Notes under the pieces: model-generated | Seen by the model: the letters and a program-made list of their open reading frames with translations, nothing else | Database searches by the model: none | Told to the model about the DNA's origin: nothing | Shown here: positions 19,756-38,914 of the stretch, in pieces | Position numbering within the stretch: position 1 is the first letter of the stretch | Layout of the letters: each line of letters begins with the position of its first letter | Position numbers and translations under genes: made by a program | From: Escherichia coli | GTDB lineage: Bacteria; Pseudomonadota; Gammaproteobacteria; Enterobacterales; Enterobacteriaceae | Length of the DNA: 53,474 nt | NCBI GenBank assembly: GCA_017639185.1 | Contig: GCA_017639185.1_4892.1 | Strand: one strand, 5' to 3'

Positions 19756-19828
19756 TCCGCTGGCTCCTGGCGGGTAGCACCCTTGCGAAATTACCCCCCG
19801 CCGCACCTATTTCGATTGAAATGATTAC
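19756..19828 (+). repeat. control-region repeat unit A1
   Basis: About 70 bp, roughly 70% identical by eye to the unit at 19933..20003. Shared blocks CGGCTCCT, GCACCC, ACCCCCGCCG, ATTT.GATTGA, ATTAC. Confidence 0.6.
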
Positions 19829-19932
19829 TATGGTAACTATTGCGATTGATACAATTACCGTGTGAACTACTTCGGCCGTTATAGTACAAAGCGTCTATAA
19901 TTCAGATTGAAATTATATTTTTATAAATAATT

Positions 19933-20003
19933 TCGCCGGCTCCTTTAAGTGGCACCCCTACGTTACTATAACCCCCGCCGACCATTTTGGATTGAGTAAT
20001 TAC
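19933..20003 (+). repeat. control-region repeat unit A2
   Basis: Second copy of the unit at 19756..19828. Confidence 0.6.
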
Positions 20004-20149
20004 ATGCGAAACTATATCAATTGCATATGAGAACCACTCTCAATCGCAAGTGATTATCATTTCTAAAAACTTGCATAAACTTGCAATTCTTTTATGTACA
20101 ATCAATAGCGATTGGTCTATTATATATTTATTGAATGTGATGACTGATT

Positions 20150-20166
20150 GACCAGTCTAACTGGTC
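20150..20166. promoter_or_regulatory. perfect palindrome (candidate operator)
   Basis: GACCAGT-CTA-ACTGGTC, 7-bp arms. Overlaps a TTGACC -35-like hexamer. Confidence 0.45.
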
Positions 20167-20312
20167 TGGAGGATATTGGTATGGTTTAGATTTGGTAGGT
20201 AGTACTTAACCAGTCAACAGGTACATCTGGTAGATGTCAATGGTACCTTTTGCTCTTTAACAATTTGGTAACATGTTTCTTGTTGATAGTAACACTAGTA
20301 ATAGTTTCAACC

Positions 20313-20338
20313 AGTGACTATTGGTATCAATAGTCACT
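20313..20338. promoter_or_regulatory. perfect palindrome (candidate operator upstream of first early gene)
   Basis: AGTGACTATTG-GTAT-CAATAGTCACT, 11-bp arms with 4-bp spacer, about 30 bp upstream of the ATG at 20367. Confidence 0.5.
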
Positions 20339-20366
20339 CCTGGAAACTAATACAAAGGTAACTATT

Positions 20367-22648: not shown

Positions 22649-22897
22649 TATTAATCAAGTCCTGGTACTGACAGGGCTTGATTAAAAGCTGGTAATTGAT
22701 TCAATCCTGAGGATTTGCCAAAAGTCCTCATGATTGAATTAACCCACAAGTGGAGGCCTTATGGTCCGATGTAAACATGTTGTTGAGTATTCTGTTGTGA
22801 ATCCTGCATATGCTGAAGGTCGGGCTATGAGGAAGCTGGTTGGGATCTTTCTGATAATTCTTATGGTATTGGCTTATGTTTTCTAAGGATGATTTAT

Positions 22898-24410: not shown

Positions 24411-24671
24411 AGTTGCACAACTCATCTGTTGAATAATAAATATATTATAACACACACTAACATACAATAACATAGTAAATATCACCGAAGCTTGCCACGC
24501 CTGGCTTTAGACATGCCTACGAATTATTTATCAGTCCGGTTTTTTATTATTTTTCGCCAGCGTAAATTTTTTTTCATCCGGTTCTGATATTAATAAAGAG
24601 ATAAACCGGATCATACATATAGACGCCTCTAAGTAGCTGTTTTTATTACTTCTAATATAATTAATAATATA

Positions 24672-24692
24672 TAATAATAATAATAATAATAA
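24672..24692. repeat. (AAT)n microsatellite inside an AT-rich intergenic region
   Basis: ATAATAATAATAATAATAATAA read directly. Confidence 0.8.
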
Positions 24693-24869
24693 ATAAATAT
24701 ATACCCCCTTTTATCCGGTACTTGGATCCCCTTATTACCCCCCTTTTTCTTTATAAAGGGCTCCATATATTTACTAATTCATGTAAAAAGAAAAGAGTAT
24801 ATAAAACAGTAGCTTAAGTGCACTTAATTCGAAAAACACGGTTTATTTATTCCATAACTAGTCTACCGG

Positions 24870-24922
24870 AGCAAAAAGAGTATATAAAATAAGGGCTTAC
24901 GTATTTTACTACATAAGCCCTT
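24870..24922 (-). terminator. intrinsic terminator after the primase-helicase gene
   Basis: Inverted repeat AAGGGCTTA (24891..24899) / TAAGCCCTT (24914..24922) immediately after the stop at 24927. T-rich run follows on the minus strand. Confidence 0.55.
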
Positions 24923-24926
24923 GATT

Positions 24927-37262: not shown

Positions 37263-37369
37263 ACACTAATGAAAAAAGTTTAAAAAAGGTGTTTACACAC
37301 TCTTTTAAATGACGTATATTAACTCACGTAACGAACAAACATTAAGCCCTGTAGACGAGGAAAAAATTA

Positions 37370-37836
37370 TGAGCGAGAAACTGACTTTTGTAACTGGTAA
37401 AGAAGAAGTTAACGGCGTACTGTATCCGGCAGCTGGTACTGGCGCACGTTACGTATGGGACCTGGCTGATAAAGCCCATGAAGAAGGCAAGTCCAGCTCT
37501 GATGTTATGGACGAAGTTGTTGCCACTACCGAAATGTCACGTGGTACTGTTTCTTCCCAGCTGACCTACTGGCGTAAAGCCACTGGTAAAGTTCTGGCTA
37601 AGCGTGTTGATACCGCTAAAGCAGAACGCGATGCTGCTAAAGCCGCTGAAAAACAGCGTAAAGCTGAAGAGCGTGCTCGCATCAAAGCTGAAAAAGCCGA
37701 AGCGAAAGCTGCTGAGCAGATTCGCAAAGCTGAAGAGAAAGCTGAAAAAGCTCGCCAGAAAGCAGAAGCTGCTAAAGCTGAAGCTGCTAAACTGGCTGGC
37801 GCGATCGAAGGCGACAACGTAGAAGTTGCTGAATAA
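37370..37836 (+). CDS. Lys/Ala/Glu-rich charged protein
   Basis: ATG 37370. C-terminal low-complexity KAEKAEAKAAEQIRKAEEKAEKARQKAEAAKAEAAK. Confidence 0.45.
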
Positions 37837-37852
37837 TAGCGCTGATCTGAAC

Positions 37853-37870
37853 GCACCTCTACGGAGGTGC
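37853..37870 (+). terminator. UACG-tetraloop hairpin (processing/stability element or weak terminator)
   Basis: GCACCTC-TACG-GAGGTGC, perfect 7-bp stem, 17 nt after the upstream stop. No U-tract. Confidence 0.4.
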
Positions 37871-38409
37871 ATTCAATGGACATCCTTACATCTCTCTTCT
37901 TATCAACAATCAATTAAGCCTGGTGTGTTGAAACAGTGAGGGTGTCCAGTGAATGCAGTTCAATTCTGCTCGCTGACCGAGATTTGGTAAAAGCCGTGAT
38001 GTGTGAGGTTCGATTCCTCCAACGCTGAAAAGGGTATTGGCTCGCTACCTTGACCCCAGGCGCCTGGCGTAGACGGCGGTCACAATTTTAGTTGTGGTGT
38101 TTTGGCGTATCTTTTTGACACCCGTCGGGTGCAGGTTATCCACAGTAACTCAGGTGCTAAGACACCACAACTAAGGTTGTACTCGCTGTGTGCTTTTGCC
38201 ACTACAACTGTGTGATAAGTGTAACGCTATATACTTTTCATGTGGTAAGAGCACACAGCAAGTAACGCATATGTGATTGGCTACTTGATGGTACCTCCTT
38301 TCTGACTCGTCGCGGGGATTAAGTCGGTCAGTCCTTTAGCCAATCTCATATGCGCTGCCTGGTTGCATAACTGCGATTCCTTGTATCTCCTTACGCCACC
38401 CTGCCAAAA

Positions 38410-38440
38410 GGACCAGTTAACGCTGGTCCTTTTTTATTTT
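38410..38440 (+). terminator. intrinsic terminator
   Basis: GGACCAG-TTAACG-CTGGTCC followed by TTTTTTATTTT. Confidence 0.7.
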
Positions 38441-38460
38441 ACCCGAAGCATAAAAAGTGC

Positions 38461-38490
38461 TTTACCACTAGAGAGTGATGTGGTATAATA
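38461..38490 (+). promoter_or_regulatory. candidate promoter TTTACCAC-N11-GTGGTATAAT
   Basis: Same architecture as 34841..34865. TATAAT at 38484..38489 with flanking TACCAC/GTGGTA inverted repeat. Confidence 0.5.
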
Positions 38491-38515
38491 AGTTATCTTT
38501 TAGAGGAGAGATACA

Positions 38516-38914
38516 ATGAATCTACAACGTGTCGCTGAAGCTTATTATAGAATTTGGATACTTCGTCTTGAAGGTCAAATTGACTACGTAAACACTGTCG
38601 GTCGTGAAGACTACCTGCCTGCATCCTCTTTCCATGAGGTATGTAACCTTGCTCAAACACTCGAGCATGAATTTGATAAGGTTAAATTTACACGCGAAGC
38701 GCAAAATAACTTTATCAAATTTGAAACAACCATGCGTTGCAAGTTCCCGTTTATCAAGCGTATATCTCGCACCGGCCTCTTCATTGTCCCCTTTCCTGTG
38801 GGTAAAGACCGTTGGGACATATTAGAGAAGGCCCGACATATAATCTGGTCTACTGAAACAAAACGTAAGTTTATCGAAACTGTTTGTAAGGAGTTAAGAA
38901 ATGCGATTCAGTAA
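38516..38914 (+). CDS. hypothetical protein
   Basis: 132-aa ORF with GGAGAG RBS. Confidence 0.5.
   Translation: MNLQRVAEAYYRIWILRLEGQIDYVNTVGREDYLPASSFHEVCNLAQTLEHEFDKVKFTREAQNNFIKFETTMRCKFPFIKRISRTGLFIVPFPVGKDRWDILEKARHIIWSTETKRKFIETVCKELRNAIQ

Follow-up and report, generated by a model that had tools for sequence, protein, structure and literature searches.

What does a phage encode in a stretch of its genome that appears to hold no protein gene? The question is raised by positions 37837-38515 of a 53,474-nucleotide (nt) contig from an Escherichia coli assembly (GCA_017639185.1_4892.1; hereafter the window, meaning the whole stretch at its full length), which is a Rosemountvirus-type myophage genome. 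An initial annotation made from the sequence alone had pointed here to a gap without open reading frames (ORFs) as a candidate noncoding RNA locus or origin. The gap was confirmed, with zero ORFs of at least 60 amino acids (aa) on either strand of 37914-38515, the longest such gap in the 53.5-kb window. We found the region to be a noncoding RNA locus on the + strand. Within it lies a double-T-arm element of about 130 nt which, on comparative grounds, appears to represent an uncatalogued, phage-specific RNA family and one more unit of phage transfer RNA (tRNA) arrays. It is very likely that the locus represents a real structured RNA family; to the full statement, which includes tRNA-like maturation and mimicry as the mode of action, we assign a probability of roughly 0.7.

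The double-T-arm element

The element and its parts were laid out as follows.

37952..38084, + strand: double-T-arm element, about 130 nt, apparent member of an uncatalogued phage tRNA-array RNA family
37955-58 / 37966-69, + strand: T1, GCAG-UUCAAUU-CUGC, loop UUCAAUU
37970-81, + strand: invariant UCGCUGACCGAG
37975-78 / 38078-81, + strand: P1, closing helix
37986-87, + strand: GG bulge
37993-97 / 38073-77, + strand: P2, GCCGU/ACGGC
38005-08 / 38016-19, + strand: T2, GAGG-UUCGAUU-CCUC, loop UUCGAUU, the T-arm motif of the initial annotation
38032-35 / 38053-56, + strand: P4, enclosing GCUCGCUACC (38040-38049)
38056-67, + strand: palindrome hairpin

Both T1 and T2 carried the T-arm signature of tRNAs, a 7-nt UUCRANY loop with the G53-C61 closure. 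The isolated motif GGTTCGATTCC that had been noticed at 38007-38017 is thus the second T-arm of a conserved element, and the perfect palindrome CCAGGCGCCTGG (38056-38067), also correctly located, is just a small lineage-specific hairpin within it. Members of the family shared a common plan. The 5' T-arm, closed by G-C and carrying a UUCRANU loop, was accompanied by the invariant UCGCU, by the closing helix GRCC/GGYC with the bulge GAGnUUUGGUAAA and its D-loop-like GG beside it and, usually, by a second T-arm. Downstream of the core, nearly all members continued with nUUUGGUAAn, a hairpin with a UUCGAnU loop and a variable insert, before the 3' GGYC, the partner of the core GRCC in the closing helix. 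In the window, this comparative structure had a folding energy of -33.4 kcal/mol, compared with a minimum free energy (MFE) of -34.0 kcal/mol for the element.

Support for the helices came from a 25-sequence alignment, in which 93.8% of the cells of T1, P1 and T2 were paired. These three helices contained 61 double-change cells compared with 16.7 +/- 3.3 in shuffled alignments, and none of 500 shuffles attained 61; when the partners were slid by 1-3 columns, pairing fell to 34-50%. The closing G-C pair was present in 25/25 family sequences at T1 and in 23/23 at T2, and the T1 stem occurred in at least eight different Watson-Crick versions. Independent support for P1 was provided by members with near-identical 3' contexts in which the paired base alone differs: GUCGGUCAAU (L059) versus GAGGCCAUU (L050), and CGGUCUGACAGCCGGGAAAGACCGGC (L030) versus UGGCCUGACA(A/G)CCGGGAAAGACCGGC (L051, L061). 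P1 also paired in all seven held-out matches (7/7).

Distribution in phages and association with tRNA genes

The 27-nt core GCAGTTCRANTCTGCTCGCTGRCCGAG (37955-37981) was found exactly in 23 stretches of the IMG/VR database, and in 36 when the hairpin stem was left free. The element was present in over 40 genomes or contigs of phages, most of them not related to the window phage. The IMG/VR matches included contigs of 60-412 kb that had no protein neighbours in common with the window or with one another (blastp, E <=1e-4). A covariance model of the family, R1, reported one copy per family locus at 54-87 bits, and tRNAs in the same loci reached at most 16 bits; the window element scored 75.7 bits, its sequence being part of the training set. 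Among sequences held out of training, Rhizobium phage RHph_I1_6 (Schitoviridae), first found by blastn, scored 60.8 bits with its copy 9 nt after a tRNA-Gln, and six further IMG/VR contigs scored 57-65 bits. A loose pattern, CGCTGRCCGAG..GGTAA, mostly retrieved chance matches, of which R1 confirmed 6 of 75 loci. Members ranged in length from 63-73 nt (L026 and L090, both without the second T-arm) to about 138 nt. Cultured phages with the element come from Salmonella and E. coli (Rosemountvirus and Loughboroughvirus) and from Rhizobium (Cyamitesvirus).

In 11 of about 24 distinct lineages, genes for tRNAs predicted by ARAGORN were separated from the element by 1-21 nt, sometimes flanking it on either side; tRNA-Gln and tRNA-Ser were the commonest neighbours. 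Two sister phages offered a second link to tRNAs. Erwinia phage SOI901 and the metagenome contig ERZ1463040 NODE-2 (hereafter the ERZ contig) had the same flanking genes, terminator and promoter as the window, and carried tRNA-Pro(UGG) and tRNA-Gln(UUG) where the window has the T-arm element and the adjoining hairpin module H2.

Three observations concern the neighbourhood of individual members. tRNA-Gln, the commonest immediate neighbour, adjoined the element in loci L058, L062, L063 and L080, and was also one of the two tRNAs replacing the element in the slot of sister phages (L007, L012). tRNA-Ser was located 3' of the element in L058 and L090, and 5' of it in the L036 group. Seven loci (L030, L032, L033, L047, L051, L061 and L063) shared a conserved 3' extension, in which UGACAG precedes a GAAAGA-loop hairpin. 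This extension was absent from the window copy; H2 is found there instead.

Host genomes were searched as a possible source. Across 185,579 bacterial species genomes the core occurred in one contig of a metagenome-assembled genome (MAG) only, with flanks essentially identical to those of the window, and 5,426 E. coli genomes contained no chromosomal copy, the sole match being a phage-sized 'plasmid' of 52.8 kb at 98% identity. As copies in E. coli and species-representative genomes were only phage-like, a host origin of the element was rejected.

The surrounding RNA locus

The element sits within a longer array of hairpins, between the end of a small protein gene at 37836 and the ATG, at 38516, of a gene for a 132-aa protein.

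37292..37320, + strand: candidate sigma-70-like promoter, TTTACA-17-TATATT, a 10/12 consensus match only
37369..37836, + strand: upstream protein gene, with a Lys/Ala/Glu-rich repetitive C terminus and no Pfam family
37853..37870, + strand: H0, 7-bp hairpin with a UACG/UUCG loop
37868..37957, + strand: H1, long imperfect hairpin with apical conserved GCCUGGUGYGUUGG
38084..38178, + strand: H2, 24-bp outer stem around the hairpins CACCC-GUC-GGGUG and GUUAU-CCACA-GUAAC
38180..38264, + strand: H3, long hairpin with stem CUGUGUGCU/AGCACACAG
38259..38361, + strand: H4, long hairpin, Rosemountvirus only
38362..38405, + strand: H5 and the CU-rich stretch CCUUGUAUCUCCUUAC, complementary to the ribosome-binding site (RBS) of the next gene
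38406..38440, + strand: intrinsic terminator, 12 pairs then a T-run, closing the RNA locus
38461..38518, + strand: candidate promoter TTTACC-17-TGgTATAAT, RBS and start of the next gene, outside the RNA

Three landmarks of the initial annotation recur in this list: the UACG hairpin (GCACCTC-TACG-GAGGTGC, 37853-37870), the terminator (stem 38406-38433, T-run to 38440) and the promoter-like element of the next gene, which is sigma-70-like with an extended -10 (38461-38489). An inverted-repeat scan and folding resolved four long imperfect hairpins plus shorter ones, giving the locus the appearance of a chain of modules. The + strand of 37840-38440 had an MFE of -239 kcal/mol, compared with -174 +/- 6 for dinucleotide shuffles (z -10.9), and the - strand one of -204 kcal/mol (z -6.1). 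An advantage of the + strand of 28-30 kcal/mol was also found in the homologous regions of L017, SOI901 and the ERZ contig, the rows on which the comparison in relatives rests (those of ZCSE2 and KE25 were excluded). The asymmetry arises because G.U pairs in the stems become A.C mismatches on the other strand, and G.U pairs favouring the + strand were directly visible in H1 of the window, SOI901 and the ERZ contig.

The locus was well conserved. Positions 37837-38515 were 94-99% identical to 44 Salmonella and Escherichia phages (emiel, yarpen and BP63 among them). Identity was 80-83% for Loughboroughvirus (ZCSE2, SE4, S144) and, over patches, about 78% for the KE25/fHy-Eco03 group. Identity to ZCSE2 was 98% for the T1 core, 95% for H0, 86% for H1, 83% for H2, 79% for H3 and 76% for the rest of the double-T-arm element. 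This range of 76-98% against Loughboroughvirus lies above the four-fold-degenerate sites of the three flanking genes, which were 54-66% identical to ZCSE2. The T1 core was also 92% identical to the KE25 group, whose adjacent 132-aa protein is 44% identical. The region is not drifting, but is either under purifying selection or repeatedly exchanged.

The covariation check that the initial annotation had proposed was carried out across homologous regions, and compensatory changes were found in H0/H1, the T-arm element and H2; conserved structure and sequence were present in related phages. H0 and H1 together comprised 23 pairs, 7 of them with compensatory changes (RNAalifold, 15 sequences), including an A-U pair of H0 that is C-G in SOI901 and the ERZ contig, where the H0/H1 stems differ from those of the window yet pair. 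H2 comprised 31 pairs, of which 7 were compensated across the Rosemount, Loughborough and KE25 groups; as a motif it was seen solely in this phage group, and so is not a second widespread element. Within the genus, the stems of H3 and H4 were fixed and the loops varied, the variation in H3 being apical. Between genera, the sequence of the upper stem of H3 differed and its pairing, read directly, was kept, and in SOI901 and the ERZ contig an H3-like hairpin with the stem CUGUGUGCU/AGCACACAG was recognisable after the tRNAs. H4 was missing from Loughboroughvirus, with about 80 nt absent in ZCSE2 and SE4, and its interior is paralogous to that of H2, matching H2 of relatives at 19/22 positions. 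In the KE25 group (KE25, fHy-Eco03 and vB_SE1_KM; L004-L006) the modules followed the order H1, H2, T-arm element with exact unit boundaries, and this permutation indicates that they are independent units. No copies of the hairpins were found elsewhere in the genome.

Towards the 3' end, the motif CUCCUUGU before the terminator was kept in all relatives, and the terminator itself was invariant or compensated in all of them. Two CU-rich tracts were complementary to the translation start of the next gene: 38375-38389 was 93% complementary to 38508-38522, and 37883-37900 was 78% complementary to the RBS and start codon (within 38502-38522). These anti-Shine-Dalgarno-like tracts may mask the RBS of the next gene and so silence transcripts that read through the terminator.

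Genomic setting

The surroundings form a replication and nucleotide-metabolism module, with a DEAD-box helicase upstream and a MazG-like pyrophosphohydrolase, thymidylate synthase and family A DNA polymerase downstream. The upstream protein was 82-85% identical in aa sequence across all relatives, and there was no terminator between its gene and the structured region. Its ORF can be read as 175 aa. Since the promoter-like site overlaps the first ATG of that frame, the true start is probably the ATG at 37369 (155 aa), as annotated for BP63, whose record also places a promoter and the 155-aa coding sequence (CDS) at the place equivalent to 37292-37320. The homologue of this protein in fHy-Eco03 has been reported as virion-associated. 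No internal promoter match was found in the structured region. A search for wider relatives through the downstream 132-aa protein added, beyond known phages, just one metagenome and one IMG/VR contig.

Three records matched the Rosemountvirus locus near-exactly under other labels: PP583539.1 ('Listeria phage', 53,072 bp), JAEWER010000021.1 (L049, a Bacillota MAG contig) and NZ_JBVNBN010000003.1 (a 52,771-bp 'plasmid' of an E. coli assembly). Judging from the locus and its flanks, which are what was compared, mislabelling, mis-binning or co-assembly is the likely explanation. In the 47-kb record of Salmonella phage SPHG1 (MW413353.1), the region was matched in three pieces, with seven matching places, which suggests a rearranged or mis-assembled genome.

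Proposed mode of action

We propose a transcript that most likely begins at 37292-37320, covers the small protein gene (to 37836) and ends with the terminator (38406-38440). The untranslated part, about 570 nt, would then fold into independent modules (H0, H1, the double-T-arm element, H2, H3, H4 and H5), with the element at 37952-38084 as the functional core. RNases that process tRNA arrays would release this element from the precursor, and the flanking hairpins are probably lineage-specific processing or stability modules. Once the element is released, a T-loop may dock on the GG bulge, in the manner of the T- and D-loops of tRNA, to form an elbow-like knob; the minimal members would consist of little more. 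Since the element has neither an anticodon arm nor an acceptor end, it would not be chargeable, and for this reason we postulate that it acts as a mimic or decoy towards a host factor which recognises the T-arm or elbow.

Readers of the tRNA elbow include the ribosome, RNase P, T-box RNAs and many proteins, and decoys that mimic it are employed by some viruses (PMC4810234). By analogy, a trans-acting mimic of the T-arm or elbow with a decoy role would be the most likely function, and we put it forward tentatively. In its specific form, a possibility to which we give less than even odds, the element would represent a class of free-standing tRNA-elbow mimics from tRNA arrays that titrate or redirect such a host factor in trans. 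That doubtful, joint proposal extends to the candidate targets, which are RNase P, TruB or TrmA, the ribosomal E-site/L1 stalk, or a tRNA-directed anti-phage nuclease, and to the window element as possibly the first example of an undescribed, widespread class in cultured, tractable phages.

Several points weigh against the proposal as a whole. Part of the invariance of the family is circular, in that the loop UUCNANU and the segment UCGCUGRCCGAG were fixed by the search patterns, and the 3' strand of P1 in alignment A4 was chosen by a rule demanding a complementary base. P2 occurred at a fixed offset in 15/31 sequences, above a shuffle mean of 4.0 and maximum of 10, and so in only about half of the family; an automatic search with free offset did no better than shuffles. 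H3 and H4 showed zero double compensatory changes within the genus. Salmonella phage rivia (L018), whose relatives are 98.7% identical, carries a natural 145-nt deletion (37989-38133) with breakpoints in a short GGT repeat, which removes T2, P2, the 3' strand of P1 and the 5' half of H2, and the isolate is viable. As rivia is viable without these parts, the element is accessory and dispensable under laboratory conditions; the same isolate offers a ready-made natural deletion mutant for functional work. Finally, we infer transcription, processing, stability, elbow formation and target from sequence.

Alternative explanations

The region could instead be a purely cis-acting 3' untranslated region (UTR), which would provide protection from exonucleases, sites for RNase III or RNase E, or masking of the RBS, with no trans-acting RNA involved. 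It does follow a gene that has no terminator and end in one, its long imperfect hairpins resemble RNase III substrates, 37883-37900 and 38375-38389 are complementary to 38502-38522, and H2-H4 are restricted to this phage group. As an account of the whole locus this is nevertheless unlikely, because it leaves unexplained a 130-nt element that in other phages is set among tRNA genes, where upstream ORFs are unrelated or missing and no downstream gene is shared, and because about 570 nt far exceeds the needs of 3' end protection. For H0, H1 and H5 a 3' UTR role may hold alongside the tRNA-array element.

The tRNAs in the corresponding slot of sister phages allow another explanation, that the locus is neutral wreckage of a former tRNA cluster and its T-arm motifs are decaying pseudogene fragments. 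The stems of the element vary by compensatory substitution and not by decay; the element is conserved above neighbouring four-fold sites; and the same architecture, with the invariant, non-tRNA segment UCGCUGRCCGAG, occurs in unrelated phages beside intact tRNAs. We therefore consider wreckage quite improbable, even though SOI901 and the ERZ contig carry intact tRNA-Pro and tRNA-Gln in the slot, no tRNA is detectable in the window, the tandem tRNAs of SOI901 match the family model weakly (14 bits) and the rivia deletion is tolerated.

Of the two possibilities that the initial annotation had named, the RNA locus is borne out by strand bias, covariation, conservation and the terminator, and the origin is not. 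A DNA-level element, either a replication origin or a protein-binding site, would fit the position of the region inside the replication gene module, between the helicase and polymerase genes, and its palindromes. A perfect DnaA-box consensus, TTATCCACA, is present at 38136-38144, where it forms the 3' stem half and loop of GUUAU-CCACA-GUAAC inside H2; it is conserved in the Rosemount, Loughborough and KE25 groups and kept in the rivia deletion. We found this reading very improbable. The 53 kb contain only three perfect DnaA boxes, and boxes with one mismatch were not enriched (19 compared with 13.5 +/- 3.7). There were no iterons and no repeat array marking an unwinding element, and the GC-skew extremes lie near 19-20 kb and 44 kb, with no turn here. 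Relatives whose slot is filled by tRNAs or by the element alone (L007, L012, L017) lack the box, the G.U pairs on one strand only are not required by a duplex-DNA element, and the modules are permuted, replaced by tRNAs or partly deleted in viable relatives. Elsewhere in the window, gaps without an ORF of at least 60 aa were located at 19807-20366, 22649-22875 and 24486-24926; the first of these (560 bp, at the cumulative GC-skew minimum) is a better candidate for an origin or divergent promoter than the region studied here.

That unannotated small proteins are encoded here is hardly credible: depositors did call small CDSs in seven GenBank records (30-90-aa 'hypothetical proteins' in BP63, ZCSE2, SE4, KE25, fHy-Eco03, vB_SenM-1 and S144), but these calls are inconsistent between records in position and strand, comparison of 37837-38515 with the Loughboroughvirus, KE25 and SOI901 homologues left no conserved ORF, since all 13 ORFs of 20-41 aa are broken there by a frameshift or stop, and substitutions follow base pairs, not codons.

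Novelty and significance

A paper on Rosemountvirus-type phages reports no tRNA genes and does not discuss the region (PMC7432712), and the same holds for the abstract of a second paper on these phages (PMC9343928). Literature searches for the core sequence, or for the region in Rosemountvirus papers, returned nothing; the supplements of a csRNA catalogue may list the element unnamed (PMC10690425). The locus is thus undescribed in the papers on these phages that were searched and its core element is not in Rfam, and it belongs to a kind that is already known, that of noncoding RNAs derived from or mimicking tRNA and of stable RNAs from phage tRNA clusters.

The stretch gains an identity as a selected, structured RNA locus with a core shared by unrelated phages and tied to tRNA arrays. 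If the elbow-mimic proposal is true, it would add a new player to the contest between phage and host over tRNA, beside phage tRNAs and host defences that cut tRNA. The phages are easy to grow and the idea is directly testable, and model R1 can be used to annotate the family in phage genomes.

Comparison with known RNAs

Large structured noncoding RNAs, often encoded by phages beside tRNA genes, include GOLLD and ROOL. Their Rfam models had no match in the window or in 11 family loci, and, unlike them, the conserved unit here is only 63-138 nt long, the rest of the 570 nt being lineage-specific. More generally, Rfam 15 at gathering threshold gave 0 matches in the window, and at E <=10 only chance microRNA-shaped matches on hairpins; in the 11 other family loci it returned just tRNAs and one int-alpA match elsewhere, with nothing on the element.

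The element resembles tRNA in its two hairpins with the T-arm signature, its D-loop-like GG, its tRNA-gene size and spacing in arrays, and its place in a slot that holds tRNAs in sister phages. It differs in lacking a cloverleaf, an anticodon arm and an acceptor stem of 7 bp whose 3' end is free. Failure to fold a complete cloverleaf had already been noted in the initial annotation, and the scans it called for agreed: ARAGORN found 0 tRNA or transfer-messenger RNA (tmRNA) genes in the window, so that a gene of either kind was rejected, and the tRNA model RF00005 had no match at E <=10 in 37700-38650, nor did any family of clan CL00001. A search for the acceptor stem, NCCA end and anticodon arm found that UCGCUGA has no upstream complement and that no stem of 5 bp with a 7-nt loop occupies the expected position; P1 is 4-6 bp long and is followed by further RNA. 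With the tRNA-like domain of tmRNA and with viral tRNA-like structures, the element shares partial tRNA mimicry from a T-loop and a stemless analogue of the D-loop. Unlike tmRNA, it has no acceptor end, tag reading frame or series of pseudoknots, and unlike the known viral structures, which lie at the 3' ends of RNA-virus genomes, it is found in tRNA arrays of DNA phages.

A further comparison is with the bacterial Y RNA YrlA, a noncoding RNA with a tRNA-type T stem-loop, a D-loop-like GG and no anticodon, which is a substrate of tRNA enzymes, is encoded by some phages and is a partner of Ro60/Rsr (PMC4201824). The element likewise has a T-arm followed by GG and no anticodon. In contrast to YrlA, there is a second T-arm, and the stretch from T1 to the GG appears to pair with the 3' end of the element in place of forming an 'acceptor' hairpin. 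CUCG-CUGRC-CGAG between T1 and the GG could form only 3-4 bp, and its G/A position covaries with the 3' GGYC. YrlA was rejected as an identity for the element: the Ro60-binding motif GNCGAAN0-1G (PMC4201824) was absent from both strands of 37837-38515. Scans of the neighbouring genes and of the 10 largest ORFs in the window detected no TROVE domain (rsr).

Closest in setting are two RNAs of phage T4, rnaC (species 1) and rnaD (species 2), noncoding units of about 120-140 nt in the tRNA cluster that, like many copies of the element, abut tRNA genes. The T4 record describes them only as 'small, stable RNA', and rnaC ends in a canonical T-arm, CCGGGUUCGAAUCCCGG. The T4 RNAs differ in having no 5' T-arm, no UCGCUGRCCGAG core and no GRCC/GGYC closing helix, and the window phage differs from T4 in having no tRNA genes at all. 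Homology to rnaC and rnaD was rejected, because R1 run with filters off on the T4 tRNA region gave best scores of 11.3 bits (a tRNA) and 10.9 bits (the rnaC T-arm only). T4 rnaD (L176, 3054-3172, minus strand) begins with a CCGG-GUCGCUA-CCGG hairpin followed by UAAG, a start that resembles UCGCUGRCC...GGUAA of the family and the P4 loop GCUCGCUACC; R1 detected no homology there. As a comparable class of stable RNA from phage tRNA clusters, the family described here may open a route into these T4 RNAs.

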